From: Polyangiaceae bacterium
Lineage (GTDB): Bacteria; Myxococcota_A; Polyangia; Polyangiales; Polyangiaceae
Length of the DNA: 64,000 nucleotides
Assembly (NCBI GenBank): GCA_025936115.1
Contig: JAICTZ010000038.1
Coordinates: 1,975 to 65,974 of the forward strand
Reading direction: 5' to 3'
Shown: piece after piece, positions 84-13,490 of the stretch
Position numbering within the stretch: the stretch's first letter is position 1
Layout of the letters: every line of letters begins with the position of its first letter
Program-made: the position numbers and the translations under genes
The notes under the pieces: model-generated
Database searches by the model: none
What the model saw: the letters and a program-made list of their open reading frames with translations, nothing else
Told to the model about the DNA's origin: nothing

Positions 84-130
84 GTGGGCGGGACAGGGGT
101 CGAACCTGCGACATCCGGTATGTAAAACCA
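84..130 (-). repeat. att-site direct repeat: displaced copy of the 3' part of tRNA-Val (not a functional tRNA)
   Basis: 47/47 nt identical to 11850..11896 (gtgggcgggacaggggtcgaacctgcgacatccggtatgtaaaacca). Flanking bases differ on both sides (g83/a11849, a131/g11897). The tRNA 5' half is missing. Confidence 0.9.
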
Positions 131-246
131 ATTTTCGGCTTTCTCCAGATCGGCAGGAACCCGCGACGAAACGCGCGATCGAGCTGAAATCTTGCTCATT
201 TGGCTCGATTGCGTTTCCGGCACGGCTACGCGTACTATGCCACGCC

Positions 247-1611
247 ATGCCGGCGAAGAGTAGCGGCAAAAGTAGCGGCAACGATTCGGGCCAGGTAGCG
301 GCGAAAGCCGGCCGACCGCGCCGCCATCGAACGCGCCATCCCGGGGTCGTACTCATCCCGCCTCGCGGCCGGGATTGGTGGCGCGCAAGGTACCGAGACC
401 CCGATTCGGGACGGCTCCGCTGGGAAACCCTGGAGCACATTCTAACGACCGCCGAGCAGCGCGAGCAGTGGGCGCGCCGCAAGAGCGAAGCCCTTGCAAA
501 GCGGCGCTTGGAGCTCGACGGCGGGGCGCCTCGGACGACGGGCACAACGCTCGAGGCTGCCGTCGGCCGCTACTACGAGCACCACCCGCACCTTCGTCCG
601 GCGACCGTCGCAACGTACAAGGCGGCGACGGATAAGCTCATCGACTGGGCCAAGCGCGTGCGCCTCCAGAGCGCCGACGATCTGACGGCGCCGCAACTGC
701 TCGCGTTCCGCGCCGAGCTCGTCGGCGTCACCAAGCGAGTGCGCGTCAAGGGCAAGCGAGGTGCCAATGCGCCGAGTGAGAAGAAGCGATCGGCTTGGTC
801 GGCGAACCGTGAGCTAGCGGCAGTCAGCACCGCACTCACGTATTGTCGGCGGCTCGGCCTGCTGCCGCGACTCACCGGCGACGGCATCAAAGACGGCCTC
901 AAGAAGCTCCGCGTCGATCGCAAGAAAATCGACTTCCGTGAGCCGCGCGAGCTACAGAAATTCTTGGAGGCCGCGCTTCGGCACGACGCCGACGTGTTCA
1001 AGCTCACGCGCGCGGGCGACACGGACGCGCCCCGCTACAAGCCGGCGGCTCCGGTGTGGGTGACAGCGATGCTGAGCGGTATGCGGGCAGGGGAGCTGCT
1101 CGGGCTCACGTGGGATCGTGTGAAGCTTGCCGACGAGGGAAAGCTCGAAGTCACTTCGGAGAGCAAGACGCACCACGCGCGCGATGTGACGCTTGAGGTG
1201 TGCCCGGCGTTGAAACGCCTGCTCACGGCGATGCATCTCGCGCGAGGACGCCCCAACGACGGCAGCGTGTTTGACCTCACGAAAGGCGAGGCGAAGGCGG
1301 CCGAGCGTCGGCTCGTCGCCGATTACGGCGCGCCGAAAAAGTGCAATCTCCAGGCGATGCGCCGCACGTGCGGCACCTTCTTGACCAACGCGCCGTCGAT
1401 CTTTGGCGCTGCGAGCGCGTATCGCTCAGCGAAGCAGCTCGGGCACTCCGTCAAGGTGGCGGAGGATCACTATCTCGGCGTCGTGCGCGTGTCGCCGGAG
1501 GCACGCACGATCGAGGCCGCGATGCAGATAGATAAACAAGTGGCAGCCGTGATCGACTCGGTCAGCTCTGCCGCTCCGCGAGATAGGCGAGCAAGCTCTC
1601 GCGCGGAATGA
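247..1611 (+). CDS. int: Tyrosine recombinase / phage-type integrase
   Basis: 454-aa ORF next to the att repeat. The C-terminal catalytic region shows TGMRAGELLGL (Arg box), HHARDVTL, RRTCGTFL and LGHSVKVAEDHYL (His/Tyr box), typical of tyrosine integrases. Confidence 0.9.
   Translation: MPAKSSGKSSGNDSGQVAAKAGRPRRHRTRHPGVVLIPPRGRDWWRARYRDPDSGRLRWETLEHILTTAEQREQWARRKSEALAKRRLELDGGAPRTTGTTLEAAVGRYYEHHPHLRPATVATYKAATDKLIDWAKRVRLQSADDLTAPQLLAFRAELVGVTKRVRVKGKRGANAPSEKKRSAWSANRELAAVSTALTYCRRLGLLPRLTGDGIKDGLKKLRVDRKKIDFREPRELQKFLEAALRHDADVFKLTRAGDTDAPRYKPAAPVWVTAMLSGMRAGELLGLTWDRVKLADEGKLEVTSESKTHHARDVTLEVCPALKRLLTAMHLARGRPNDGSVFDLTKGEAKAAERRLVADYGAPKKCNLQAMRRTCGTFLTNAPSIFGAASAYRSAKQLGHSVKVAEDHYLGVVRVSPEARTIEAAMQIDKQVAAVIDSVSSAAPRDRRASSRAE
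260..303 (+). promoter_or_regulatory. Three direct copies of GTAGCGGCR, candidate integrase arm-type sites (left end)
   Basis: gtagcggca at 260..268 and 272..280, gtagcggcg at 295..303. The same 9-mer recurs three times at the other end of the element (11783..11824). The copies lie inside the first codons of int. Confidence 0.4.
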
Positions 1612-1945
1612 GGACGCGGCTCGATCCGCCTTTCACGCGCCGCACTGACTTGAGCTCGCCCGTCGCCACGAGCCGGCGGATCTGCCGATCGGAGCAGCGG
1701 AGCAGCGCGCGGGCTTCGGCGAGCGTTACGAGAGCGCGAAGGCCGCCCATTGCCGCCTCATCCGCCACGGTCGCGTTAGCGAGCGCGTCGGCGACGGCAG
1801 CCTTCACGAGCTCGGCGAGCGCCGGCTCCGGTGGGCCGTACTCAGCGAGCAGCCAATCGATTGTAGCGGTGACTGCCTCGCCGTCGATCCAGCCTGTCGG
1901 CGCGCTCCACGTCGGGCGCCATTGCGCACGTGCTGTCGAGCTCAT
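1562..1945 (-). CDS. Excisionase-like helix-turn-helix DNA-binding protein
   Basis: 127 aa from the internal ATG of the over-long 1562..2800 ORF. The C-terminus LVTLAEARALLRCSDRQIRRLVATGELKSVRRVKGGSSRVLIPRESLLAYL matches the MerR/excisionase-type HTH pattern. Its ATG overlaps the upstream stop (ATGA at 1942..1945). Confidence 0.65.
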   Translation of the reverse strand: MSSTARAQWRPTWSAPTGWIDGEAVTATIDWLLAEYGPPEPALAELVKAAVADALANATVADEAAMGGLRALVTLAEARALLRCSDRQIRRLVATGELKSVRRVKGGSSRVLIPRESLLAYLAERQS

Positions 1946-2901
1946 GACACCGCGCCCCCGGCCAGCGGTGAGCGAAGCGAACCGCGATGGCCGGAGTAGC
2001 TCGCGATCGAGCGCCGCCATTGTCGCGCCGTGCGAATCGCGTCGCAGTGCCCGTGTTTGCAGTGAATCGCGCCGCTGCCGCAGTAGTCGCGCGGCGCGTA
2101 GTAGATCGTGCTGCCGTCGCCCGGCGTGCCAGTGGTGTGAGCCAGATCGCGCGGACAAATGATCCGCAGGGAGCCCGGCGCGGGGCCCGGGCCGACGACG
2201 AGGCCCGCGCTTCGTAGCGCTTCGAGCAGTGGCGGCGGAGTCATGCACTGCTCTGGCCTGGCGCGCTCGCTCCGCTCGCGCTTGGCCAGGGGCGTAGAGG
2301 CAGCGCGCGGGGAGAGTTTCGCCGCCGGGGCTTCGGGGAGGTCGATGACGCCGATCGCGTGCAGGTCGCCCATCGTCGGCCACGCCTCGGGGGCGCCACC
2401 GTCGCGCGCCGCGTGCGGCAGCCGAAAGAGACGGGTCCAGTCGGCGCAGCTGCGATCGGGCTCGAGCCCGAACCGCATGAAGTCGTCGCACTTCGCGGCG
2501 TACCGCGCGCGCCACATGCGGGCGTCGAGCTCGGTGCCGATAGCGAACGGATCGAGCAGTTGCCCGACGATCCGAGCTCCCCCGCGCGTGAAGTAGATGA
2601 AGCACCCCGGCGCCGCCGCCGTCGCGCGCTCTGCGAATTGCGCGCGCCATGCCGGCGTGACCGGCGCATGCCCCGCGGTGTCGAAATCGAAAGCGATCGC
2701 GCGGAGCTCGATCGGCATGCGACCGATGTCGCCGCTCGTGAGCCGGCGGCGCCGGAATCGAGAGCTCGTCGCGAGCTGCGCATGCGCGTCGCTCGGCCAC
2801 GCTCGCTCGAGCGCGTCGCCGAGCGGCATCTGCTCACATTCGATCGTCGCAAGGCCGCCGCGCACGCGTGCATGATCCAGGCAAGTGACGAGCGGCGTCA
2901 T
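1942..2901 (-). CDS. Primase-polymerase (AEP)-like protein with C-terminal Cys/His cluster
   Basis: 319 aa from the ATG at 2901. It has an acidic IAFDFDTAGH motif (DxD-like), TRLFRLPH, and a C-terminal CPRDLAHTTG...YCGSGAIHCKHGHC zinc-finger-like cluster. It sits directly downstream of the helicase gene. The function is inferred. Confidence 0.5.
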   Translation of the reverse strand: MTPLVTCLDHARVRGGLATIECEQMPLGDALERAWPSDAHAQLATSSRFRRRRLTSGDIGRMPIELRAIAFDFDTAGHAPVTPAWRAQFAERATAAAPGCFIYFTRGGARIVGQLLDPFAIGTELDARMWRARYAAKCDDFMRFGLEPDRSCADWTRLFRLPHAARDGGAPEAWPTMGDLHAIGVIDLPEAPAAKLSPRAASTPLAKRERSERARPEQCMTPPPLLEALRSAGLVVGPGPAPGSLRIICPRDLAHTTGTPGDGSTIYYAPRDYCGSGAIHCKHGHCDAIRTARQWRRSIASYSGHRGSLRSPLAGGAVS

Positions 2902-3092
2902 TTTGAAGCCTTCGAGCGCTTCGAGCGCTTCGGCTTCGGGTCCGCGCGCAGCTCTGTGGGCTCCTCCGCGCTCGTCAGCCAAGCTTCGGGCTCGCCTACG
3001 TCGCGCTCGTCGCCCTCGAACCGCTCGATACGGATCTTCGGCTCGGGGGGCTTGCGAGCTTTCGAGAGTTTCTTTTGCAGGCGCCGGGTCAT
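2898..3092 (-). CDS. Small basic hypothetical protein
   Basis: 64 aa (MTRRLQKKLSKARKPPEPK...). The start overlaps the helicase stop (ATGA 3089..3092) and the stop overlaps the primase start (ATGA 2898..2901). Confidence 0.4.
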   Translation of the reverse strand: MTRRLQKKLSKARKPPEPKIRIERFEGDERDVGEPEAWLTSAEEPTELRADPKPKRSKRSKASK

Positions 3093-4624
3093 GCTGCCGC
3101 CTCGACGGCTTGGGCGACCCGCCAACGCGCACCCAGATTCGATTTTCCGGCCATCGTAATGCGCAGGCGGTGCTGCGCGCTGGAGATGATTCGATCGCGG
3201 TGCTTCTTGAGCAGCGCACCGACCTTGCGCACTTCGGGGCGCTCCGTTTCCGGCACTTGGCAGGCCGCTCCGAGCGCGCGCATCAGCCGTTGAAACTTAG
3301 GATCGTCCTTCCGTGCGGAACATGCGCTGAGGAGGTCGTGCACGTCCATCACGCGATCGCCAAGCGCCTCGAACCAAGCCCCGAAGAGCTCTGACGCCTC
3401 GTCGAGCTCCGTCACCATCGTCTCGCGAAGCTCGTCTTGCGTCGTTACGGGATCTGCGGCCCCTGCCCAGATGAGCGGCGCGCGCACATGCTTCGACCAC
3501 TGCTCGAAGGATCCCATGCCGCGCATCTCTACGGAGGGCCGTCCCGCGCAGCTGTAGGCGCGGAAGATGGTAAGCGCCGCCGCCAGCAATGAAGAGCGGC
3601 TTGCACGTATGTGGTCGGTGAGGTGAGGGTGCTTGAACCCGGCGCGGAGCTCGGGCCGCTCCGTATCGGGCACAAGCCGGCAGTGCAACGAGCGACGTGC
3701 CAAATCGACGGTTATCTCGGCTCCGTTGCCCGTCAGAAAAAAGACCGCCGTCACGTCGGTCTCCACCATCTCTGTCGTGCGCATTCTTCGTCCGGCAAAC
3801 TTGCCGCTCGTCAGAACCGCTTCCAGCGCAGCCGATGCGACGCGGCCCCGCAGATTGTCGAAGAGCACGGCCGGCGCCGCCCCTGCGCAGATAGCGGTCA
3901 TCGTTCTTTGCCACTCGTCGTCTTGGGACGGCGCCGCCTGCGCTGGCGGTGCCTCGTTCAGCACGATCCGCGCGGCGCTGTTGGCGAGGAGCGTCTTGCC
4001 GCTTCCCGGCGCAGTAGCGTCGAAATAGAACGCGGGGACAGGCCCCGCGATCGCAGGGCGCGCGATCAACGTCAACACGGCCGCGATCCAAACGGCACGC
4101 TCGGCCGCGGAAGTGATCGGGAAGTCTGCGATCACGTCGAGGAGCACGCCGAGCGCGGCACGCGCGTCCGCTTGCGTGGGAGCACTTGGGAGGTCGATTT
4201 TAGGCAGGCCGGCCAAGAGGTAAGCCGTCTCTGCGTCGTACCCGTTCGTACAAACGATCGATCCATCCGAGCGCAGAATCGGCCAACTGGCGATCCCGCG
4301 CAGCGGTCGGATGTGTCGCCAGCTGCCGAGCTCGTGAAGCGAGTCTCTTAGTTGAGTGGGCGGGCTGGATTCTTGCTCATTCGCGCCGGGCCCCCACGTG
4401 AACCACTCGGCGCCGAGTTCGAGCTCATTGAATAGGAGCACGCGCGGCAGCTCGCGCAGGCGCGGTTGCCCCGTTAGCTCAATGACGTTCTCGCGCTTCA
4501 CCGGTTCGCGCACGACGTGCACCAAGCGGCCGGCGCGCTGATATACCTCGCGTAACGCCAGAGCCTTGCACGCCTCTTCTATCTGCTGGTCGATCGCGTA
4601 GTCCGTGTTGATCTTCGGGGGCAT
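3089..4624 (-). CDS. SF3 / D5-P4-type replicative helicase (P-loop NTPase)
   Basis: 511 aa. It has Walker A ATAPGSGKT and a Walker-B-like AVLFDNL, with the overall layout of phage/plasmid primase-associated helicases. Confidence 0.7.
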   Translation of the reverse strand: MPPKINTDYAIDQQIEEACKALALREVYQRAGRLVHVVREPVKRENVIELTGQPRLRELPRVLLFNELELGAEWFTWGPGANEQESSPPTQLRDSLHELGSWRHIRPLRGIASWPILRSDGSIVCTNGYDAETAYLLAGLPKIDLPSAPTQADARAALGVLLDVIADFPITSAAERAVWIAAVLTLIARPAIAGPVPAFYFDATAPGSGKTLLANSAARIVLNEAPPAQAAPSQDDEWQRTMTAICAGAAPAVLFDNLRGRVASAALEAVLTSGKFAGRRMRTTEMVETDVTAVFFLTGNGAEITVDLARRSLHCRLVPDTERPELRAGFKHPHLTDHIRASRSSLLAAALTIFRAYSCAGRPSVEMRGMGSFEQWSKHVRAPLIWAGAADPVTTQDELRETMVTELDEASELFGAWFEALGDRVMDVHDLLSACSARKDDPKFQRLMRALGAACQVPETERPEVRKVGALLKKHRDRIISSAQHRLRITMAGKSNLGARWRVAQAVEAAA

Positions 4625-4633
4625 GTCGCGGCC

Positions 4634-4843
4634 TCACGCCTTTACGGCGGGCGTGCTCGCGACTGCGAGCGGCATCAGGCCTGCTGCTTGGGCGACGGCG
4701 ACGAGCCGCCGTCGCGGCTCAGTTCGCTCGAGCACGTGAAGGGGCTGGCCCGCCTGGAGCTCTTCGAGAAACGATTGCGCGACGCGCACGTCCACGCCGG
4801 CTTTGCTCGCTAGTTCGCGAGCCGAAACGCTGTCATTCATCAC
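4634..4843 (-). CDS. Small winged-helix/HTH-like protein, first gene of the leftward replication operon
   Basis: 69 aa. ARELASKAGVDVRVAQSFLEEL resembles an HTH. It ends 9 nt upstream of the helicase start. Confidence 0.45.
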   Translation of the reverse strand: MMNDSVSARELASKAGVDVRVAQSFLEELQAGQPLHVLERTEPRRRLVAVAQAAGLMPLAVASTPAVKA

Positions 4844-4885
4844 AACCTCGCACGCACTGTGTGTGCGGCTCTATCGAGCTTATGG

Positions 4886-5023
4886 CCCCCGGGACTGACC
4901 TCGGCTACTTTTCGGCCCCGCGGCCGGTGATTGAGGTGAATCACTCCTACATGTAGCGTTTGGGGAGCTTCTCAATTCGGTATTGGGGGAAGTGATTCAC
5001 CGTCAGTCACCGTCACCCCCGGG
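4886..5023. promoter_or_regulatory. Palindrome cluster upstream of the replication operon (operator and/or origin candidate)
   Basis: GTGAATCAC at 4936..4944 and GTGATTCAC at 4992..5000. There is a perfect 10-bp palindrome CTACATGTAG at 4947..4956. CCCCCGGG occurs at 4886..4893 and 5016..5023. This is an AT-richer 196-bp intergenic region. Confidence 0.35.
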
Positions 5024-5039
5024 TGCACGCACCCCATCG

Positions 5040-5273
5040 TTAGTCGTCCGACTCGGGGCAAGCCGGAACCGGTGGAGGCTCGGCATTGAGCGCCAGCCAG
5101 ATTTGAACGCCGACACCGACGGTCATAACGAGGGTAAGGATGGCGATCACGTAGGTCAGCACGATCAGGTGCTTCGTCTGCCGTGTGGTGGCCTCGTTGA
5201 ACTCCCTGATTGTCTCGTGCAAAGCCTTCGTCGCACCTGAGCCCGACCACTCATCTAGCGGGATTCCCGACAT
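5040..5273 (-). CDS. Small single-pass membrane protein
   Basis: 77 aa from the ATG at 5273 (an alternative start is 5309). The hydrophobic span is HLIVLTYVIAILTLVMTVGVGVQIWLAL. It is divergent from the XRE-like gene. Confidence 0.45.
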   Translation of the reverse strand: MSGIPLDEWSGSGATKALHETIREFNEATTRQTKHLIVLTYVIAILTLVMTVGVGVQIWLALNAEPPPVPACPESDD

Positions 5274-5401
5274 CAGAGTAGCGGACCACCCGGCGCGCGG
5301 GTCGCGCAAGTGTGCTCTCTCCCCGCCGCTGGAACAGTGTGGGGCACCTCAAGGCCGCAGGGCGTCGCGAGTCTCGCGCGGCAGTTGGGCCGATTTGCGG
5401 C

Positions 5402-5472
5402 TTTCCTGGAAAGCGCGGCATTTCGTAAGCGCCGCGCTGCGGGGCGCGCGCGAACGGGCGAGATTTCCAGGA
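5402..5472. promoter_or_regulatory. Two TTTCCWGGA half-palindromic sites upstream of the XRE-like gene (operator candidates)
   Basis: TTTCCTGGAAA at 5402..5412 (perfect palindrome) and TTTCCAGGA at 5464..5472, 62 bp apart, in the divergent intergenic region 5274..5528. Confidence 0.3.
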
Positions 5473-5528
5473 GAGCAGATCGTTTGCTCGGCAAAGCCGC
5501 CGGCTACGCGCTCTTGAGGATTTTCGCA

Positions 5529-5999
5529 ATGAACGATGCAACGCCCGACGACGTAGCAACCAAACCCGTGACGCTGGCAGCGAACGAGGGCGCGCGCTTG
5601 CTACGCCTCGCCGGCACGATCGATCACTGCGCCGCGGAGACGCAACTCTCGACGCGCTCGATCACGAGCTACCGCAACGGCGCCGTGCCCAACGACGCGG
5701 CAGCCGCGCGCCTCGCGGCCGCGCTCGGCATTCCTCGGAGCGCATGGCGGCAGCCGCCGACCGCGTACCGCGATCCGCCTTGGCTCCAAGACGCGCTCGA
5801 AGCGCTCACGGCGTACCCAGCGGCGACCTTCGCGCTGCTGAGGCACCTCATCGTGAAGGCCGGGGACGCGGCCGCACTCGCGCACTTCGACGCGAACGAG
5901 CTCCCGGGCGACGAGCGGACGCAGGCGCTACTGCGCGCCGCGCAGGAAGCCGAGCGCGCGCTGATACCGGCGGTATACGGCGACAGCACCCGCGCCTAA
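5529..5999 (+). CDS. XRE/cI-like HTH transcriptional regulator
   Basis: 156 aa from the internal ATG. ETQLSTRSITSYRNGAVPNDAAAARLAAALGIPRSAW fits the XRE-family HTH pattern. The upstream part of the 5310 ORF is Arg-rich junk. Confidence 0.55.
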   Translation: MNDATPDDVATKPVTLAANEGARLLRLAGTIDHCAAETQLSTRSITSYRNGAVPNDAAAARLAAALGIPRSAWRQPPTAYRDPPWLQDALEALTAYPAATFALLRHLIVKAGDAAALAHFDANELPGDERTQALLRAAQEAERALIPAVYGDSTRA

Positions 6000-6230
6000 G
6001 CCGCCGACACCGACCACCGCTCCGGCGCGATAGCAGAGGACGAGTGCCACCGAAGCGACGGTTGTGATGAGCGCGAGCACGACGACGACGCGCCAGCCGC
6101 CGGCCGGAAGCGTGCGCAGAACGGCGACGAGACCGCTCCAATGAGGCCCCGGCGCACCTACCGGTCCGCTTCGGGTTGCGTTGCTGTAACTGGACGGCTC
6201 GCGGTTCTCATGGTCATCTTCGTCCGCCAT
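5928..6230 (-). CDS. Small two-pass membrane protein
   Basis: 100 aa with two hydrophobic segments (WRVVVVLALITTVASVALVLCY and AVVGVGGLGAGAVAVY). GC3 is high by eye. Its 72-nt convergent overlap with 5529..5999 lowers confidence. Confidence 0.4.
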   Translation of the reverse strand: MADEDDHENREPSSYSNATRSGPVGAPGPHWSGLVAVLRTLPAGGWRVVVVLALITTVASVALVLCYRAGAVVGVGGLGAGAVAVYRRYQRALGFLRGAQ

Positions 6231-6732
6231 GCGGGCTCTCTTCCTATCGTGCTGATGGGACGGGTTTGCTGGGCGATGGTTCGGGGCTGGTTGCCGCCAG
6301 CCCCGGACCGACTAACTTCGCGTGGACGTGTAACCGGGCGAACGCCCCGGCGCTAGGAATCGGCAAGCCGTTCATAAATGGCACCGAAATCGCGGCTGGA
6401 GGCTGTAGCTGTGACGTTCAAAGTCACACCTGGCTTGACACCTGAGGTGGGCGACGACCGCGAGATGCCCACTTTGCGGCGGGGCCGCGTCTCCACCATC
6501 CGCTGCTTTCTAAGACGAGACTCATAGCTTGTCCCCAGGGCGGGCACCAAAATGAACGAAGCCCCGGCGACGCGGGGGAGCATCACCGGGGCGGGTTGAG
6601 GTTCGAAGAGGCTGTACGATCGCGTCTACCCTGTGGATAAACCCGTGTCAACGGGGAGACCCTCAACAGGCGCGACGAAGGCGCCCAACCAGACGCGCGC
6701 CGAGCTCCGCGAAAATCGTCTCGCAAACCGTT

Positions 6733-6760
6733 GCACCGCGCGGCGGTGCGCTGCGGTGCG
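6733..6760. promoter_or_regulatory. Palindrome plus direct repeat just upstream of the rightward operon
   Basis: GCACCGC-gcg-GCGGTGC palindrome at 6733..6749. The direct 8-mer gcggtgcg occurs at 6743..6750 and 6753..6760, about 20 nt before the ATG at 6777. Confidence 0.3.
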
Positions 6761-6776
6761 GGGTCACATTTTCAAT

Positions 6777-6944
6777 ATGGTCAATTCAAGCCTGCGCCTC
6801 GAACCAGAGTTGCGCGAAGCGTGTGAGGCGGTTGCGCGAGACCTCACCCGCCGTACCGGCGTAACCGTCGGCTGGACGCTCGTGCTGCGCCGTGCCGCGA
6901 GCTTCGGCTTGCCCTTCGTTCAGCGCGAAGCGGGCGGCAAATGA
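6777..6944 (+). CDS. Small ribbon-helix-helix-like protein (tentative)
   Basis: 55 aa (MVNSSLRLEPELREACEAVARDLTRRTGVTVGW...). It has a beta-strand then helix pattern like CopG/Arc. Its stop overlaps the next start (ATGA at 6941). Confidence 0.35.
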   Translation: MVNSSLRLEPELREACEAVARDLTRRTGVTVGWTLVLRRAASFGLPFVQREAGGK

Positions 6945-7234
6945 GCGCCGTCGGCTCGGTCGTCAGCGCCGAAATCGCGCAAGAGAAGACGCGCCGACTG
7001 GTCCACGCTGCCGCCGCGCGCGACACCCGCCAACGCGGCCACGCGCTCGCCGAAGGCGTCGAGTGCGCCGCGCGCCAAGCGCTCGAGCTCGGTCCCGTGC
7101 TTCGCGCCGCGGTTGCACGCCGCGCCGAGGATGCGCCCGATCGCGTGCGCCGAGAACACGACGCGCACTACTTTGCGGGCCCGCGCTTTACGTCGCGGGT
7201 CCGAGACGGCTTGCCCGTCGCGGTGAGCGAATGA
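6941..7234 (+). CDS. Hypothetical protein
   Basis: 97-aa ORF with ATGA start/stop overlaps at both ends (6941 and 7231). An antisense ORF (6920..7168) competes, and GC3 cannot separate the two. Confidence 0.3.
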   Translation: MSAVGSVVSAEIAQEKTRRLVHAAAARDTRQRGHALAEGVECAARQALELGPVLRAAVARRAEDAPDRVRREHDAHYFAGPRFTSRVRDGLPVAVSE

Positions 7235-7896
7235 ACCGCACCGAAGAATACATGCTCATCGGCAGCGTGCCGGGGCCTCGTTCCGATGCGTTTTGCATGG
7301 CTGCACGAAAAGCCTGGCACGCGGGCGAGTACCCCGATTTCCACGCAGCGCAGGTAGCGCTCGCGCCGCGATTCATCTCCGACGGCGGCCCGGCGACGCC
7401 GCCCGCGACACCATCGACCCCGAAAACTCCCCGCGCGGAGCCCGCGCCGAAAGAAGAAATGGCCGACGAACCCCAAGATCCGCGGATCGCGAAAATCATC
7501 AAGGCACTCCGAGCCGGCGATATCGACGCCGCGCGAGAGCTCTTCAAGAATCTCTCCGACACGAGCGACGCCGTGGCCGTCGTTGACGTGCTCCGGCAGG
7601 CGCTCAAAACGCAAGACGCCCTGCTGCGCGCGCTCGGCACCGGCGCGCACGCGAAGCCGATCGGCGAAGCCCAAGAGTTCGATCGCCTCATGGGCATCGC
7701 GGCGCCGCAGCCGCGCGGCGTGATCAACGACGGCGCGCTGCAAGTCTTCGGCGCCGCACCGCGAAACGAGCGGCTCGACGCGCACGAGCTCGACAAGCTC
7801 ATGCGCGTCGATCGCGCCGCCGGCACTGCGGGCGCAGCGAACAGAGGTCGGGTCGTCTTCAACGCTGCCGAAGGCATCCAGTATTTTGGAGTCTGA
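7231..7896 (+). CDS. Hypothetical protein (element-encoded)
   Basis: 221 aa from the internal ATG (MNRTEEYMLIGSVPGP...). It has a Pro/Thr-rich linker then a helical C-terminal part. No motif was recognised. Confidence 0.55.
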   Translation: MNRTEEYMLIGSVPGPRSDAFCMAARKAWHAGEYPDFHAAQVALAPRFISDGGPATPPATPSTPKTPRAEPAPKEEMADEPQDPRIAKIIKALRAGDIDAARELFKNLSDTSDAVAVVDVLRQALKTQDALLRALGTGAHAKPIGEAQEFDRLMGIAAPQPRGVINDGALQVFGAAPRNERLDAHELDKLMRVDRAAGTAGAANRGRVVFNAAEGIQYFGV

Positions 7897-7900
7897 CCAC

Positions 7901-8713
7901 ATGGCAACCGTAGCAACTCACGAAGAGCGAAAGCGCGCACTCGAGGCCGCGCTCCACGAAGCCGACTCAGAAAATGATCGTGCGCGAGAAAAGATCGCGA
8001 CGGCGCAACGCGGGCAGGCCGCTGCGTATGCCGCGCGCAAGGCGCAACTGCAAGCCGACTTCGACGCGGAAAACGCTGCTCACTCGCGATCCGTCGCGCA
8101 GCAATTTCAAACCGCCACCGTGCCCGTTATCGCGCGCATTCACGCCGAACCCACACATGCCGATGCGCGGCAACTTGCCGAAATGGCAGCGTCGGCGCGC
8201 GCGGGTTGTATGGGCGTGCTCGGGCAAGAGTTCGACCTCGCCGCGCACTTGCGTCTCGCCGTCACGCGAGTCTTGGTGGCCGAGGACCCCGCACGCCTGG
8301 GCGCACTATCGCAGCCGCGTGAGGTAGGCATTCCGGATCCGATCGCGCTGCCCGCCGCAAAGGCAGCCGAGGCCGTCACTAGCCGTGACGCCGCCGCGAT
8401 CATTGTCGCTGTGGGCGCGCTGCAAAGCGCGCTACGCGCACAATCGGCGCGACCCACCGGCGACGCGGCGATCGGCCGCGAACGACTCGACGTGATTGCG
8501 TCCTTCGCTACGCGCTCGGAGATTTTCCTGGCGCTCGAGCGCTTCGAGGCGGAGCAAGCTCGGCTGAAACGCGAGCGTGACGCGGCCGATTGGCAACAGA
8601 CGCAGCGCGACGCCGACCTTGCGCGCAGCGGCGTCGATGTCCCGGGCCGTGAGCAAGCCTGGATCGAGGCCGTGAGGCGCATCGGCCGCGAAGTCGTGGC
8701 GCGGATCGTATGA
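7901..8713 (+). CDS. Hypothetical alpha-helical/coiled-coil protein
   Basis: 270 aa from the ATG at 7901 (a TTG at 7886 is also possible). It is Ala/Arg/Glu/Gln-rich helical sequence with no recognisable catalytic motif. Confidence 0.55.
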   Translation: MATVATHEERKRALEAALHEADSENDRAREKIATAQRGQAAAYAARKAQLQADFDAENAAHSRSVAQQFQTATVPVIARIHAEPTHADARQLAEMAASARAGCMGVLGQEFDLAAHLRLAVTRVLVAEDPARLGALSQPREVGIPDPIALPAAKAAEAVTSRDAAAIIVAVGALQSALRAQSARPTGDAAIGRERLDVIASFATRSEIFLALERFEAEQARLKRERDAADWQQTQRDADLARSGVDVPGREQAWIEAVRRIGREVVARIV

Positions 8714-8813
8714 CTCTTCGGTTGTGCGTCGCGGCGCGTGGTTCGCCCTGCGATCGTCGCAGGCTGCTGAGGCGGTCCAGCTCTCGTGTCGGCGGGCCGC
8801 GCACGCACAACCG

Positions 8814-8928
8814 ATCTAACTCTTTCGGCGCCACCCTGCGGCTGGCTCCCCGCGTGAACGGTCACGCGCTGCGGAGGCGGGTCGCACTCTTACCCGTGTC
8901 CGCAGGCAGGGTTGCGCCGAATCTAACT
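8814..8928. other. Nested-hairpin element flanked by 8-bp direct repeats
   Basis: ATCTAACT at 8814..8821 and 8921..8928. The outer imperfect inverted repeat is ggcgccaccctgcgg (8827..8841) with ccgcaggcagggttgcgcc (8900..8918). The inner perfect hairpin is cgcgtga-acgg-tcacgcg (8851..8868). Confidence 0.4.
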
Positions 8929-8963
8929 TCCCAGAGTGCCGCGGAAGCGCGCCGAGCAGCCGC

Positions 8964-9269
8964 GTGAAGCGCGTTGCGGCCGGCGCCGTCGCGCCCGAGC
9001 GTCTCGTGCTCACGCTTCGTAATCGTGACGGCGCAACGCTCGCGGAGCGTCTCGACTTCGGCACCGTGACGGCCGCGAGCATTCGAGTGCTCGACTCCGA
9101 CACTCGGTGGACGGCAACGATTCTCTCCGCCGCTTCCGACGAGCTCACGATCGCGCATCCGTTCGGCGCGCTCGACGTTCCGCGGCGCGCCTTGCTGCGG
9201 CTCTCCGTTGAGCTCGCTACCCCCGGCGGCCTGCGCCGGAGCGCACCCATTCCTCTCGAAGTGACCTAA
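8964..9269 (+). CDS. Hypothetical small beta-rich protein upstream of the fibre gene
   Basis: 101 aa with a GTG start. The alternating hydrophobic pattern (LVLTLRNRDGATL...IRVLDSDTRWTATILSA...LLRLSVELA) suggests a beta-sandwich. Confidence 0.5.
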   Translation: MKRVAAGAVAPERLVLTLRNRDGATLAERLDFGTVTAASIRVLDSDTRWTATILSAASDELTIAHPFGALDVPRRALLRLSVELATPGGLRRSAPIPLEVT

Positions 9270-9297
9270 CCGCGCCTCACCGCGCGAGCTATTTCCG

Positions 9298-9459
9298 ATG
9301 ATCGATGATCCGAAATCCGAGACGCCCGACGCGCAGCCGCGGCCCGAAGCGCCGTCCGACTGGGAGAGCGAGTTCTTTCGGGCGATCTGCGTAACCGACG
9401 AAATGGTTGCCGCCGCCGCGGCTGCCGCTGCCGCTGCCGCTGAGCCGGTGGAGCGCTAA
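9298..9459 (+). CDS. Small acidic protein with poly-Ala tract (below the ORF-track size cutoff)
   Basis: My own translation gives MIDDPKSETPDAQPRPEAPSDWESEFFRAICVTDEMVAAAAAAAAAAAEPVER. Its TAA overlaps the fibre gene ATG (TAATG at 9457..9461). Confidence 0.4.
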   Translation: MIDDPKSETPDAQPRPEAPSDWESEFFRAICVTDEMVAAAAAAAAAAAEPVER

Positions 9460-10514
9460 TGGGAATCCTCACAGAGTCGTCTACCTTCGACGCGGACATC
9501 ACGGTACCGGTGGGTGGCGAAGATCTGAACGCCGAAGTCTTGACGGCCGGATGCCTTCGCAAGCTCACGAATCGCACGCGCTACCTGCTGAACGGAATCA
9601 ACGGCTTTATCGTCGGCAACGGGCCCGGCGCTGACTACACGCCAACCGGCGACCCGATCCAAATTTTCGGCTCCGGCTTTCGCGTCATTGGCGCGCTCTT
9701 CCGCGCGACCGGCAACGTCGAGATCGGCAACGATGTAGGCGACAGTTTCACCGTCACGAGCACTTCATTTCTCAACGGCCCCGTCAACATGACTCAGGGC
9801 CTAACAATCGGCAGCGCCGACGACAACGGCCCAAGCAACAACGTTTACGGCAATATCACCTTTCGGCGCACGACGACGTTCGGCACCGCGGGAAGTCCTG
9901 TCACGGTCAATTCCTATGCGGAATGGACTCAAACCGGCAATTTTTCGATCGCCGGCGGCTCTGGCAACACCTTCGATTGCACCGCTGTGATTCACAGCCA
10001 TTCGGATGTGATCTTCGGCGGCAGCTCCAAGACTTTCACGTGCTCGATCCCGGCGCACTTCGACGACAACGCGCCGACCACCTTCGACGGTAACGTGACG
10101 CTCGGCAGCACTTCGAGCGATGCGATCACTGTCAAAGGCACCACGATGATCTCAGCGCCGGTAAGTACCAGCGGTAGCGGGCGACTCATCTATCGTCCGC
10201 TCACGGTGCTAAACGCCGACTACGAAATCAACGCGTCGAGCGCGCGAATCGTTTTCTTCAATTGCGGCGCACCGCATCCCGCCGCGACGGTGACTGTCAA
10301 TGACACGGGTCTGGTCGATGGCGACAAGTTCCGCATGTCGATGTCGCCCCTGTCATTGCCGTCCACCACAGCGCGATTCGTTCCGGGCCTCGGCTTGCCG
10401 GTGACGATCAAACGCAACACCTTCGCAAGCGACGGCCTCGGCTGGGCTGAGTTCGTACGTGTGGACGGCGTGTGGCAGCTCAGCGCCTTCGGCGGCCCGG
10501 TGGACTTCACGTAA
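9459..10514 (+). CDS. Tail-fibre-like beta-helical protein
   Basis: 351 aa. The N-terminal CLRKLTNRTRYLLNGI matches the LxNRTxYL motif common near the N-terminus of phage tail-fibre proteins. The body is Gly/Thr/Ser/Asn-rich with repeated G-N-x-T-F/V-x-G segments. GC is visibly lower than its surroundings. Confidence 0.6.
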   Translation: MGILTESSTFDADITVPVGGEDLNAEVLTAGCLRKLTNRTRYLLNGINGFIVGNGPGADYTPTGDPIQIFGSGFRVIGALFRATGNVEIGNDVGDSFTVTSTSFLNGPVNMTQGLTIGSADDNGPSNNVYGNITFRRTTTFGTAGSPVTVNSYAEWTQTGNFSIAGGSGNTFDCTAVIHSHSDVIFGGSSKTFTCSIPAHFDDNAPTTFDGNVTLGSTSSDAITVKGTTMISAPVSTSGSGRLIYRPLTVLNADYEINASSARIVFFNCGAPHPAATVTVNDTGLVDGDKFRMSMSPLSLPSTTARFVPGLGLPVTIKRNTFASDGLGWAEFVRVDGVWQLSAFGGPVDFT

Positions 10515-10684
10515 TGCGCGCGCGGCATCGTCGGCTGGCGATGCTTCGAGCTCACGAGCTCTTGAGCGAACTCGAGCGCGGCGGCGACGGCGCTCCGCCC
10601 GCTTGGGTGCTCAATGAGACGCGCGAAGCGCTCGGGCGTCACCTTGCAGCGTCACTTGTGCCGAAGCGCCGCCGCAAGCGGTGA
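10514..10684 (+). CDS. Small hypothetical protein coupled to the fibre gene
   Basis: 56 aa (MRARHRRLAMLRAHELLSELERGGDGAPPAWVLNETREALGRHL...). Its ATG overlaps the fibre stop (TAATG at 10512..10516). A chaperone role is speculation. Confidence 0.4.
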   Translation: MRARHRRLAMLRAHELLSELERGGDGAPPAWVLNETREALGRHLAASLVPKRRRKR

Positions 10685-10690
10685 GTGCTG

Positions 10691-10882
10691 CTAGCGCTCG
10701 ACGCAAAGCCAAGCGCAGTGCGAGTCGTCGCGGTCCGGGCAGTAGCAGAGCGCGCGCTGCCCAGTGCGACAGTTCGGTTGCACGTGAGTGGCACAGCCGC
10801 CTCGCACCGGCGGCGAGCTCGCGCCGCCAGCCGCAAGGCATAGCAGCGCGAGTCCCAGAACGACGACGAGAGCGCGTATCAC
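10691..10882 (-). CDS. Small secreted cysteine-rich peptide
   Basis: 63 aa from the GTG at 10882. It has a signal-like VIRALVVVLGLALLCLAAGG followed by about 40 residues with six Cys (C..C..CYC..C..C). The GTGA overlap with the upstream stop is at 10879..10882. Confidence 0.45.
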   Translation of the reverse strand: MIRALVVVLGLALLCLAAGGASSPPVRGGCATHVQPNCRTGQRALCYCPDRDDSHCAWLCVER

Positions 10883-11214
10883 GCCGCGCGCCCGATTTCG
10901 TCGAGGTAGGCGGCCACGTATATCGAACGCGCGGCCCGTCGCGCCAGCAGAACGCAGCATGTCGAGCCGGGATAGTCGTTTTCGGCTCGGAGCAAGTCAG
11001 TGAAGCAGGCGGCGGCATCCGCGGCAAAGTTGCCGTCGTGCAGCGCAGCGTCGGTGCCCCGCTCTTCGGGACTCGCGTCGAGCCACGCGCGCGCGTCCGA
11101 GCGGGCCTCCCGGTCGATCTCGCCGCGGATCAACTCTTTCAAAACTTCGACGCGGCTTTTTGTTTGGCGGTCTCGCGCTTCGGCCTCGGACGGGGGTAGA
11201 ACACTTTCAGCCAT
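10879..11214 (-). CDS. Hypothetical protein
   Basis: 111 aa with protein-like composition (MAESVLPPSEAEARDRQTKSRVEVLKELIRGEIDRE...). It is coupled to the downstream Cys-rich ORF. Confidence 0.5.
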   Translation of the reverse strand: MAESVLPPSEAEARDRQTKSRVEVLKELIRGEIDREARSDARAWLDASPEERGTDAALHDGNFAADAAACFTDLLRAENDYPGSTCCVLLARRAARSIYVAAYLDEIGRAA

Positions 11215-11382
11215 TGGGAAGGGTCCTTCTTTCCGGTGGTGAAGGGACTGCGGCGCGGGCTCTAATCCGCGCTGCGGCCCCGGCTTTTGATCGACGAGTA
11301 TCGCCGCAGTGTGGCGAGCATGTCAATGCCGAACTGCCGCACGCTCGACTGCATAGCAGCTAATAGCATTGGATAGCAGACT

Positions 11383-11652
11383 TCAGCGCTTGACTTTCGG
11401 GATTGCTGCACTGGATTGCGGTGCGCGCGGCCGCGTTGCTACGATGCTATTCGGCATCGTCGGTCGCGCCGTCGCCGATGAGGCCGTGGAACGCTGCAGC
11501 CGTTGTGCATGCTCGCCGGGCGGTTCGTCGGGCTTCGCGTGCGCGAGCATGGCGACGACCTGCTCTAAGAGTGCGTGCGCCCGTCGCGCTTCGCGCAGCT
11601 GATGGGTGAGCTCGGGGAACTCGGATACAATGGCGTCCGTCATGAGGGTCAA
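11383..11652 (-). CDS. Hypothetical protein (weak)
   Basis: 89-aa ORF. The N-terminal 45 aa look helical and protein-like, but the C-terminal half is low-complexity. GC3 is only moderate. Confidence 0.3.
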   Translation of the reverse strand: MTLMTDAIVSEFPELTHQLREARRAHALLEQVVAMLAHAKPDEPPGEHAQRLQRSTASSATARPTMPNSIVATRPRAPQSSAAIPKVKR

Positions 11653-11782
11653 CTCCTCGTGGCCGGGGCGTCGGCTGCTAGTAACAGCGCGGCGCCCGTT
11701 TTCAGGGGCGTGGTTTAGGTCGATGGTGGGCGGCCGACCGCGAACCGGCCCGGCGCTCGGCTGGCGTGTCGCCGAGGCATTG

Positions 11783-11824
11783 GTAGCGGCAGGAGTAGCG
11801 GCAGCTTGTTGGGGCTGCCGCTAC
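11783..11824. promoter_or_regulatory. Three copies of GTAGCGGCA (two direct, one inverted), candidate arm-type sites (right end)
   Basis: gtagcggca at 11783..11791 and 11795..11803, with the inverted copy tgccgctac at 11816..11824. The last two form a perfect 11-bp-stem hairpin (11795..11805 / 11814..11824), followed by a T-run at 11841..11849. It could alternatively act as a terminator. Confidence 0.4.
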
Positions 11825-11849
11825 GATCGCGAATCGAGCTTCTTTTTTA

Positions 11850-11896
11850 GTGGGCGGGACAGGGGTCGAACCTGCGACATCCGGTATGTAAAACCA
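11850..11896 (-). repeat. att-site direct repeat within the intact tRNA-Val
   Basis: Identical to 84..130. It covers tRNA positions 28..73 plus one nt 3' of the gene. Confidence 0.9.
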
Positions 11897-11922
11897 GCGC
11901 TCTGCCGCTGAGCTACCCGCCC
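11851..11922 (-). tRNA. tRNA-Val (anticodon TAC)
   Basis: The reverse complement folds as a cloverleaf: acceptor GGGCGGG/CCCGCCC, D arm GCTC-AGCGGCA-GAGC, anticodon arm CTGGT-TTTACAT-ACCGG, variable ATGTC, T arm GCAGG-TTCGACC-CCTGT, discriminator A. It is 72 nt and CCA is not encoded. Confidence 0.93.
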
Positions 11923-12137
11923 GGGGTTCGGGGGACCCGGACGCGCAGAGCCTAGCAGCGAAGTTTGCGGCGCGTGCGTGGAAGCTTGCTCGGCGCGGAG
12001 GGAACGCGCTCTGGGCGGACGCATGGGGAGAGCTGACGCAGTTTCGCCGCGGAAAATGCCGTGGGACCGCGGGCCGGGAGCGCCGAGTTGCGCCGAAGGC
12101 ATGGCGATGGGCAGGGGCGAGCCTTACGTTTTCTTAC

Positions 12138-13490
12138 GTGAAGCTTCGGCAGCACGTGGTCGTGATCGGCGGCGGCTTCGGCGGACTGGCCGTGACGCAG
12201 GCGCTCAAACGGGCGGACGTGCACGTGACGCTGGTCGATCGCTCGAATCACTTTTTGTTCACGCCGCTCCTCTATCAAGTGGCGATGGCGGGCCTCGCGC
12301 CGGCCGAGATCGCGTCGCCGACGCGGAGTTTGTTGCGCCATCAAGCGAACGCTCGTGTGCTCTTGGCGGAAGTGACCGAGGTGGATCTGGTCGCGCGCGA
12401 GGTGCATACGCGGGAGACTCGGCCGCTCGCGTACGACTATCTCGTGCTCGCTCCTGGCTCGACAAATGCGTATTTCGGGCACGACGAGTGGGTGAACGTC
12501 GCGCCGGGCCTCAAGGATCTCGACGACGCAGTCGAGATCAGGCGGCGCGTGCTCTTGGCGTTCGAGGCGGCCGAGCGCGAGACGGACGAAGCGGCGCGGC
12601 GCCGTCATTTGACGTTCGTCGTGATCGGCGGCGGGCCGACGGGCGTCGAGCTCGCCGGAGCGATCGCCGAGCTCGCGACCTTCGTGCTCGCTCGGGATTT
12701 CCGCTCGATTCGTCCGGATTCGACGCGCGTGATCTTGGTCGAAGGCTCCGAGAGCGTGCTCACCTCGTTCGGTCCCGAGCTCTCCGCGCGCGCGCTCGAG
12801 AGTCTTCGCGCGATGGGCGTCGAGGTGCGCCCGAAGACGCGTGTGACGAACATCGACGCGCGAGGCGTCGAATGCGGGGGGGAGCGCATCGACGCGTCGA
12901 CCGTGCTCTGGGCGGCTGGCGTGCGCGCGGCGCCCCTCGGGGCGTCGCTCGGCGTGCCGGTCGACAAGCAGGGGCGCATCGTCGTCGAGCAGGACTGCAG
13001 CATCCCTGGTCATCCGGAGGTCTTTTGCATCGGTGACGCCGCGCTCTTCGTGCCCGCGGGCGAAGAGCAGCCACTGCCGGGGGTGAGTCCTGTCGCGATG
13101 CAGCAGGGGCGCTTCGTCGCGAAGAAGATCGCTCGTCAGGTCGACCGCCAGCCGAGCGCGCAGACCTTCAAGTACCTCGATAAAGGCATCATGGCGACGA
13201 TCGGCAGGAGCCGCGCCGTGGCGCGCATCGGCCGCATCCGGCTTTCGGGCTTCATCGCGTGGATCGCGTGGCTTTTGCTGCACATCGTCTACCTCATCGA
13301 TTTTCGCAATCGCGTTCTCGTGCTGATTGATTGGGCGTGGTCGTATTTCACGTACCAGCGCGGGTCGCGGCTGATTACCGGGCATCGGTTGCACGCGGGG
13401 ACACCCGGAGATCAGCTCGACCGGCAGGGTGAACCCGTTCCCGACAAACCGTTGAACGGTTTACCGCGGGTCGGGCACGACACGGCATGA
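12138..13490 (+). CDS. ndh: Type II NADH:quinone oxidoreductase (NDH-2)
   Basis: 450 aa. The N-terminal VVIGGGFGGLAVTQAL dinucleotide fold, NHFLFTPLLYQVA and a second GGGPTGVELAG motif are the classic NDH-2 layout. Confidence 0.9.
   Translation: MKLRQHVVVIGGGFGGLAVTQALKRADVHVTLVDRSNHFLFTPLLYQVAMAGLAPAEIASPTRSLLRHQANARVLLAEVTEVDLVAREVHTRETRPLAYDYLVLAPGSTNAYFGHDEWVNVAPGLKDLDDAVEIRRRVLLAFEAAERETDEAARRRHLTFVVIGGGPTGVELAGAIAELATFVLARDFRSIRPDSTRVILVEGSESVLTSFGPELSARALESLRAMGVEVRPKTRVTNIDARGVECGGERIDASTVLWAAGVRAAPLGASLGVPVDKQGRIVVEQDCSIPGHPEVFCIGDAALFVPAGEEQPLPGVSPVAMQQGRFVAKKIARQVDRQPSAQTFKYLDKGIMATIGRSRAVARIGRIRLSGFIAWIAWLLLHIVYLIDFRNRVLVLIDWAWSYFTYQRGSRLITGHRLHAGTPGDQLDRQGEPVPDKPLNGLPRVGHDTA

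Follow-up and report, generated by a model that had tools for sequence, protein, structure and literature searches.

In this study, we analyzed a 64,000-nucleotide stretch of contig JAICTZ010000038.1 from a Polyangiaceae bacterium (the window), and we conclude that the segment between positions 84 and 11896 is very likely an integrative element that is mobile and carries genes for its own replication. The presence of a tail-fibre-like gene in the element, and of a head-maturation protease gene in the related Logan contig L001, supports the view that it is associated with viruses. Based on its mobility, this association, the lack of a virion core and an analogy with P4, we postulate that the element may be a phage satellite of Mx4/Mu-like myoviruses, a proposal for which we consider the case evenly balanced.

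The element is bounded by a direct repeat that involves a tRNA gene. The single tRNA of the window is a tRNA-Val with anticodon TAC at 11850..11922 on the minus strand (ARAGORN; 64.9 bits in Rfam, which had no other match in the window), and its 3' 47 nt, from the anticodon loop to the 3' end, constitute the repeat:

84..130, minus strand: attL, a partial copy of tRNA-Val (3' 47 nt); exact 47/47 repeat, with no tRNA called here by ARAGORN
11850..11896, minus strand: attR core within the intact tRNA-Val(TAC) gene at 11850..11922 (ARAGORN, Rfam, exact repeat)

A repeat search of the whole window thus recovered the bracketing 47-bp repeat of the original prediction (84-130 = 11850-11896) without a mismatch. 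The occurrence of an exact 47-mer twice in 64 kb is far above chance, and the sequences that border the two copies are unrelated to each other. The element entered the 3' half of tRNA-Val through site-specific recombination that restored the tRNA, and it measures 11,719 bp from core to core, or 11,766 bp when one core is counted. Its G+C content is 66.6%, against 67.4% for the rest of the window, and at third codon positions (GC3) its genes, at about 0.71-0.80, are lower than those of the flanks (0.80-0.86). To the right lies ordinary chromosome that encodes an FAD oxidoreductase, major facilitator superfamily transporters and an extracytoplasmic function sigma factor. A gene of this flank is 85% identical to that of L011, the closest relative, a contig of Polyangiaceae metagenome-assembled genome SMAG_U15136, which indicates that the host is a soil myxobacterium of the Polyangiaceae. 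Nucleotides 1-44 of L011 correspond to window positions 11883-11926, so that the contig ends about 4 bases before the anticodon of the orthologous tRNA-Val, within the segment that forms the att core. A break there would be in keeping with an insertion at this tRNA that varies or is heterogeneous within that species, but it proves nothing. An empty site was not recovered, since L011 stops inside tRNA-Val and the other relatives had no tRNA near the orthologous flank gene.

Because lists of open reading frames (ORFs) are noisy in such G+C-rich DNA, genes were modeled from a GC3 frame plot, which supported the gene layout proposed earlier. The integration and excision functions are as follows:

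247..1611, plus strand: tyrosine integrase, 454 aa (phrog_1, 7.2e-29, residues 36-439; Pfam Phage_integrase, 3e-4, under the cut-off)
1562..1945, minus strand: HTH_17 protein of the MerR/Xis type, 127 aa, a candidate excisionase whose gene closes the leftward operon (Pfam HTH_17, 2.7e-10; ATGA overlap with the upstream gene)
260..280, plus strand: two direct copies of the 9-mer GTAGCGGCA, at 260-268 and 272-280, candidate integrase arm-type sites on the attL side
11783..11824, no strand assigned: three copies of GTAGCGGCA, at 11783 (plus), 11795 (plus) and 11816 (minus), candidate arm-type sites on the attR side

The match to the family phrog_1 ('integrase') confirmed the predicted integrase, in which the RxxR/GHS...Y catalytic motifs were identified by eye; its gene converges on the leftward operon, as had been stated, and overlaps the xis-like gene. 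The latter designation also held, since the 127-aa product matches phrog_66 ('excisionase and transcriptional regulator'; 1.2e-6) in addition to HTH_17. The 9-mer GTAGCGGCA occurs six times in the window against 0.53 expected, a count that none of 100 shuffled sequences reached, and five of these copies are found no more than 150 bp from an end of the element; the sixth, at 15171-15179, is 3.3 kb to the right of attR, outside the element, and is probably due to chance. Arm-type sites that flank the core on both sides are the usual layout for lambda-type integrases. By analogy, the GTAGCGGCA copies are candidate arm-type sites of the integrase, and they would flank the core on both sides in an excised circle. 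Since these copies are clustered at the ends, the repeat is 47/47 identical and the genes are intact, we argue that the element can still move.

Replication appears to be encoded in the leftward operon:

3089..4624, minus strand: 511-aa P-loop helicase of a primase-associated family (phrog_29234, 4.6e-60; phrog_19930 'DNA polymerase/primase', 2.6e-23)
2898..3092, minus strand: 64-aa basic protein (GC3 frame; ATGA-coupled at both ends; no match in Pfam or PHROGs)
1942..2901, minus strand: 319-aa primase-like protein with motifs resembling those of archaeo-eukaryotic primases (AEPs) and a C-terminal Cys/His knuckle

Many of the 32 homologues of the helicase carry the same domain after an N-terminal Prim-Pol, AEP-TOTE, Toprim or PriCT-1 domain, which bears out its placement in a primase-associated family. 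In the homologue alignment the invariant columns are G208-K209, D255 (in a DN pair), N299 and R309-R310, and by eye these fit the Walker A, Walker B, motif C and arginine finger positions of superfamily 3 (SF3)-type helicases. The original SF3 assignment agrees with these motifs; however, it was not confirmed by a classifier, since the helicase had no match in Pfam and a 27-sequence family profile found nothing of note among PDB sequences. The 319-aa protein had no match in Pfam, PHROGs or PDB, but over residues 21-201 it shares 36% identity (E 1e-24) with the extension at the N terminus of P0034, a homologue of the helicase, and the AEP-like motifs FDFD (DxD), TRGGxRxVG and RLFRLPH are kept there. 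Other homologues of the helicase have their Prim-Pol or AEP-TOTE domain in the position of this extension. By the logic of gene fusion, the 319-aa protein is therefore the probable primase-type partner of the helicase, in agreement with the primase-like gene proposed before.

The helicase is all that six other homologue-bearing contexts (L002 and L006-L010) have in common with the window. One of these, the small metagenomic element L006 (positions 1908-5067), encodes a co-directional helicase (38% identical), an HTH_17 protein and an integrase among unrelated neighbors, and it seems that the helicase-Xis-integrase core is reused by different small integrative elements. Another homologue of the helicase was noted in the 197-kb GenBank record KX853510.1 (Virus Rctr197k).

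The association with viruses is drawn in part from a single gene:

9459..10514, plus strand: 351-aa tail-fibre-like protein, with a conserved N-terminal anchor (residues ~1-90), a short-strand, solenoid-like middle and a beta-sandwich-like C terminus

This protein matched no Pfam or PHROG model, no PDB sequence and, by tblastn, no GenBank phage, and it has one relative among 5.8 billion proteins, P0002 of L001 (47% identical). An exhaustive profile search yielded 208 remote homologues. Fourteen of the 56 that were scanned belong to the uncharacterized viral family phrog_14293 and six to phrog_4549 ('tail fiber protein'); others fall in virion or baseplate families, and three match Bactofilin. 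The 351-aa protein is 48% identical over residues 3-90 to the beginning of P0042, whose gene directly follows sheath-like (DUF2586), tape-measure-sized and baseplate-sized genes on a 52.6-kb contractile-tail contig, and P0055, a full-length remote homologue, follows Mu-like tail genes (DNA_circ_N). The N-terminal motif LTE..FDADITVP..GD...A......Q.L.NRTR.L heads many otherwise differing proteins of 150-350 aa. On the viral contig L092 such a gene is separated by a few hundred bases and a single short ORF from an upstream baseplate J homologue, whose relatives include the baseplate J proteins of Myxococcus phage Mx4 and Meiothermus phage MMP17, and on the siphovirus-like contig L094 such a gene follows a giant tail-tip gene. 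An AlphaFold model of the 351-aa protein (two sequences; pLDDT [predicted local distance difference test] 57) is all-beta, with short strands at residues 60-240 and longer strands at 242-350. A Foldseek search with this model against PDB and BFVD returned nothing at E≤0.001, the top matches being tailspikes, beta-helix adhesins and uncharacterized Caudovirales proteins. Based on the P0042 and P0055 contexts and the remote homologues, which include the phrog_4549 members, it is concluded that the gene encodes a modular tail-fibre-type protein with a virion-anchoring N terminus, consistent with its earlier designation. A double-jelly-roll reading of the protein, which would have indicated a tailless virus, was considered and dropped given the solenoid and sandwich model, the lack of a packaging ATPase and the occurrence of homologues in tail clusters.

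One could envision instead that the element is a plasmid-like or mobilizable integrative island that moves outside virions, in which case the fibre gene would be cargo, encoding a surface or adhesion protein or an anti-phage tail decoy. Integrase, Xis and primase-helicase genes are indeed also found in non-viral islands, L006 combines such a core with other cargo, and Bactofilin, which three of the remote fibre homologues match, is a cellular beta-helix family. Satellites and islands often carry defense cargo, a point that we counted in favor of an island; however, a PADLOC scan found no defense system in the element, its lone Cmr5 match (0.008) being noise. Nor was there a relaxase, a coupling protein or an oriT-type match, the Replic_Relax match of 0.047 again being noise. 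The fibre has no signal peptide by eye, its N-terminal module heads proteins in phage fibre slots, and its gene is located inside a coupled, late-operon-like row rather than in a separate cargo cassette. We therefore regard an island of this type as quite unlikely.

Further evidence for an association with viruses comes from L001, which shares five genes with the element in the same order: those for the fibre (47% identity) and for the following four proteins:

5529..5999, plus strand: 156-aa XRE-like regulator, 60% identical to its L001 orthologue (phrog_638, transcriptional regulator, 0.0077)
5928..6230, minus strand: 100-aa membrane protein, convergent with the regulator gene, 50% identical to the product of the syntenic L001 gene
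6777..6944, plus strand: 55-aa ribbon-helix-helix (RHH)-like protein, first gene of the rightward operon, 50% identical to its L001 orthologue, itself a weak RHH_1 match
6941..7234, plus strand: 97-aa protein, kept in L001 (46% identity over 46 residues to a 95-aa gene product; ATGA coupling)

The XRE-like label, which agrees with the previous description of the regulator, is taken solely from the HTH_3 match (7e-4) of the L001 orthologue. The proportions of nonsynonymous to synonymous differences (pN/pS) for the shared genes were 0.54-0.82, hence below 1, which speaks against random decay. From regulator to fibre the two loci are equally compact, at about 5 kb in L001, where the segment between the 97-aa gene and the fibre gene encodes a 248-aa head-maturation protease (Mu-like_Pro, 6.6e-19; phrog_328, 1.5e-23), a 318-aa helical protein and two small ORFs. 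This protease shares 36% identity with p48 of Mx4, whose gene lies just ahead of the one for the Mx4 capsid, and its further relatives are the proteases of Meiothermus phages MMP7 and MMP17, Thermus phage Riverbug and SuMu (30-36% identity to Mx4, MMP7/MMP17 and Riverbug). Since both the lineage of this protease and the baseplate genes beside the fibre-anchor homologues point to Mx4/Mu-like myoviruses, these are the phages with which the element most likely interacts and the best candidates for the type of helper. The element and Mx4 have no detectable protein in common; tblastx comparisons of the element with Mx4 and other phage loci gave only low-score compositional matches that are typical of high-G+C DNA, and these were discarded.

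Neither the helicase nor the flank-gene product nor the fibre had an exact match among recorded proteins, no close relative emerged when viral contigs were scanned with the helicase, the fibre and the regulator, and alignment of the regulator found nothing in genome contigs or metagenome contigs. Two side observations concern L001 and its protease. Right after the fibre gene (L001 positions 5771-7321), L001 encodes a 516-aa protein with a beta-looking N-terminal 200 residues followed by long Ala/Thr/Arg-rich repeats, which has no Pfam or PHROG match and no counterpart in the window. The 16.7-kb GenBank record KX853514.1 (Virus Rctr16k, from a methane-oxidizing enrichment and from the study that also gave Virus Rctr197k) carries a homologue of this L001 head protease and could be a further compact element of the kind.

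The comparison with L001 also bears on whether the element is the remnant of a larger temperate myovirus that lost its head and tail genes by internal deletion but kept its ends, its integration and replication genes and its fibre gene, and that may still excise but has no route between cells. In favor of such a remnant, a fibre and a head protease are ordinary phage late genes, the orphan small ORFs and the stretches of unclear coding status at 10685-10878 and 6231-6776 could be debris, and neither a helper nor a packaging signal was found. However, the recognizable genes are all intact and translationally coupled, the att repeat is 47/47 identical and arm-site repeats are present at both ends. 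No frameshifted remnants of the L001 protease or of other phage genes were detected in the element by tblastn at E≤5. In addition, L001 has no capsid, portal or tail gene between protease and fibre, and because it keeps the same compact order at 46-60% protein identity, the compact form, conserved across a deep divergence, is old and maintained rather than the product of a recent deletion. A remnant of this kind is, in our estimation, unlikely.

The remaining issue is whether virion genes might be hidden among proteins that lack homologues. Two mid-size orphans stand between the 97-aa gene and the fibre gene:

7231..7896, plus strand: 221-aa orphan with predicted helices and a Pro-rich linker, in the slot of the head-maturation protease of L001
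7901..8713, plus strand: 270-aa orphan for which only helices are predicted, one of them of ~76 residues; its likeness to a scaffold is one of shape only

No protein encoded between 6141 and 11652 matched Pfam or PHROGs, and over the ORFs of the element these databases gave no capsid, portal, terminase, packaging or tail match. The 221-aa protein found only itself among 5.8e9 proteins and had no tblastn match in phages at E≤1; for the 270-aa protein, searches of Pfam, PHROGs, PDB, phages and metagenome contigs gave no match. Neither has detectable similarity to the L001 protease, and the PDB sequence matches of the 221-aa protein and the helicase were insignificant (E 0.008-0.99). A single-sequence AlphaFold model of an artificial 221+270 fusion consisted of helix and coil with no strands, the ~76-residue helix being modeled at pLDDT 75-87. 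As far as this can tell, the two proteins are not HK97-type or jelly-roll capsid proteins, portals or terminases, so that the possibility of a capsid, portal or terminase concealed at 7231..8713, raised in the original prediction as fatal to a satellite, came out negative within the reach of the tools. A six-frame search found the only P-loop of the element in the helicase, and just four ORFs reach at least 300 aa, those for the integrase, the primase-like protein, the helicase and the fibre. Because the lone P-loop is that of the helicase and all ORFs of this size are accounted for, a hidden virion core would appear to be excluded, and a length of 11.8 kb, of which 4 kb is taken up by replication and integration genes, leaves no room for terminase, portal, capsid and tail genes. 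These results uphold the earlier statement that terminase, portal, capsid and tail features are lacking.

The same orphans might nonetheless be thought to build a virion of an unfamiliar kind, in which helical and small membrane proteins form the particle of a small autonomous virus and the 351-aa protein is its spike. Most of the payload proteins are orphans without a recognizable fold, two small membrane proteins are encoded, and small enveloped or pleomorphic viruses of similar size (about 12 kb) are known from bacteria and archaea. Against this, the N-terminal domain of the fibre matches fibre proteins of tailed phages, the HK97-lineage-type head protease of L001 points to tailed-phage heads, and no packaging ATPase is encoded; furthermore, the variable middle block differs between the two relatives, which would be odd for core virion proteins. 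We consider an autonomous virus highly improbable.

If the element is a satellite of Mx4/Mu-like phages, its life cycle can be envisioned as follows. A switch around the XRE-like regulator would turn on the leftward operon, possibly upon infection by the helper or its induction, whereupon the integrase and Xis would excise an 11.77-kb circle, in which the GTAGCGGCA arm sites would flank the core, and the primase and helicase would replicate it. The rightward operon would provide the helical proteins and the fibre. The DNA would then be packaged in heads and tails made by the helper, most likely an Mx4/Mu-like, contractile-tailed phage of Myxococcota, and the element's own fibre would dock on the helper baseplate through its conserved N-terminal domain and so determine or broaden the range of hosts open to particles carrying the element. 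The 221- and 270-aa helical proteins may act on head assembly, for example by producing small heads; this role is proposed because their slot is occupied in L001 by a head-maturation protease followed by a helical protein. More tentatively, and on balance doubtfully, the element may represent the first satellite family of Myxococcota that has its own receptor-binding fibre and no head genes, and that remodels Mx4/Mu-like heads by means of helical proteins here and of a captured protease in its relative.

Several points weigh against a satellite. No helper phage is present within the 64-kb window, where the right flank is ordinary chromosome, and neither an empty site nor a circular junction was observed for the element. 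We recognized neither a small terminase nor a known protein that redirects capsids, and neither a cos nor a pac site. The sole relative, L001, is an 8.5-kb contig that lacks defined ends and has no integrase in view. The roles of the 221- and 270-aa proteins, which have no homologues, are a guess from shape and position, and the 'all-helical' model is that of an artificial fusion of both, with a pLDDT of 51 and a predicted template-modeling score of 0.26. The model of the fibre is likewise weak, at pLDDT 57 and with no significant Foldseek match, and the presence of its N-terminal motif in the siphovirus-like L094 suggests that the morphotype of the helper is not fixed.

Most of the phage satellites known come from Enterobacterales, Firmicutes, vibrios and marine bacteria, and P4, a satellite of P2-like myoviruses in Enterobacterales, has a genome of about 11.6 kb. 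The element resembles P4 in its nearly equal size, its integration into a tRNA gene by a tyrosine integrase, its own primase and helicase, the absence of capsid, portal, terminase and tail genes and, as we infer it here, a contractile-tailed helper; its mid-size helical proteins might also act on the head, as Sid and Psu do. Unlike P4, it has no Pfam or PHROGs match to Sid, Psu, Delta, Eps, AlpA or the alpha primase-helicase, its helicase belonging to phrog_29234; its primase and helicase are encoded separately, a tail-fibre gene is present where P4 has none, and its host belongs to the Myxococcota. With phage-inducible chromosomal islands (PICIs), capsid-forming PICIs (cf-PICIs) and the phage-inducible chromosomal minimalist islands known as PICMIs it shares an order in which integrase, regulator and a primase or replication core are followed by a morphogenesis-related block. 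Unlike PICIs and PICMIs, it has no ORF with a Pfam or PHROGs match to TerS, Rpp or Ppi, a search that is blind to very divergent versions, and unlike cf-PICIs, it has no capsid, portal, protease or head-tail connector, the protease being found only in L001. Thus, the P4- and PICI-like core with a differing payload that had been described stood as regards the layout of integrase, regulator and primase/helicase, whereas the marker genes of P4 and PICIs were unmatched in Pfam and PHROGs. Because the marker tests for P4-like satellites, PICIs, PICMIs and cf-PICIs all failed, the element, if it is a satellite, would belong to an undescribed family; a search of the literature for phage satellites in Myxococcota found no paper linking the two, in line with the earlier remark that no such family was known.

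A size range of 7-20 kb is quoted for satellites (PMC13376191), and the element falls within it. Host range is left by cf-PICIs to the tails that they borrow (10.1101/2025.02.11.637232), whereas the element encodes a fibre. A tail fibre protein has been described within the putative adsorption module of the Streptomyces satellite MiniFlayer, which encodes encapsidation machinery but is without key replication genes and a lysogeny module (PMC10690885). The element is the reverse of MiniFlayer, since it has replication and integration genes and no encapsidation genes. It also differs from Mx4, Meiothermus phages MMP7 and MMP17 and Thermus phage Riverbug, which are complete phages of 33-57 kb with terminase, portal, capsid, sheath and baseplate genes.

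The rest of the element consists of small genes and candidate control sites:

4634..4840, minus strand: 68-aa protein, first gene of the leftward operon, upstream of the helicase gene (GC3 frame; no match in Pfam or PHROGs)
4935..5001, no strand assigned: perfect 11-bp inverted repeat, GGTGAATCACT / AGTGATTCACC, 45 nt apart, candidate operator or origin in the 196-bp gap upstream of the leftward operon
5040..5273, minus strand: 77-aa protein with one hydrophobic helix (GC3 frame; sequence)
8710..8967, plus strand: 85-aa Arg-rich putative coding ORF, coupled at both ends (ATGA and GTGA overlaps; GC3 phase fits)
8964..9269, plus strand: 101-aa protein, beta-rich by eye (GC3 frame; no family match)
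9298..9459, plus strand: 53-aa acidic/Ala-rich protein, coupled to the fibre gene (TAATG overlap)
10514..10684, plus strand: 56-aa basic helical ORF, coupled to the fibre gene (TAATG overlap; sequence)
10879..11214, minus strand: 111-aa protein (GC3 frame; sigma-70-like promoter match upstream at 11326-11297; no match in Pfam or PADLOC)
11383..11643, minus strand: 86-aa protein beside attR (GC3 frame; no family match)

In the leftward operon, ATGA overlaps join the helicase gene to the basic ORF (3092..3089), the basic ORF to the primase-like gene (2901..2898) and the latter to the xis-like gene (1945..1942); the coupling claimed for this operon therefore applies to these three junctions, whereas the 68-aa gene, predicted to encode a winged helix-turn-helix protein, is separated from the helicase gene by a 9-nt gap. 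The rightward genes are similarly joined by ATGA overlaps at 6941, 7231 and 8710, a GTGA at 8964 and TAATG overlaps at 9459 and 10514. This coupled row was expected to end in the fibre gene, but the 56-aa ORF at 10514..10684 comes after it, and two leftward genes (10879..11214 and 11383..11643) occupy the space from there to attR. Both relatives have a gene-poor stretch between the membrane-protein and RHH genes (positions 6231-6776, ~545 bp, in the window and 1287-1930 in L001); that of the window contains a hairpin with a 13-bp stem at 6278-6309, and a late promoter, an origin or a packaging site may lie there. Outside the element, the flank gene at 13487..14353 contains 18-nt periodic direct repeats (GCGCCGCCGGCTGC...) at 13565-13731, which would encode an Ala/Pro-rich repeat segment.

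In conclusion, the helicase and primase of this element belong to families that are covered by no curated model or solved structure. In the satellites compared here, it is the tail of the helper that sets the host range; a satellite with its own fibre, if the element is one, would represent a different strategy for crossing between hosts and a natural form of fibre swapping, in which the parasite, and not the helper, decides which cells the hybrid particles enter. Because the fibre anchor and the L001 protease point to Mx4-like helpers, the element may also provide a handle on the almost unknown phages of Polyangiaceae.

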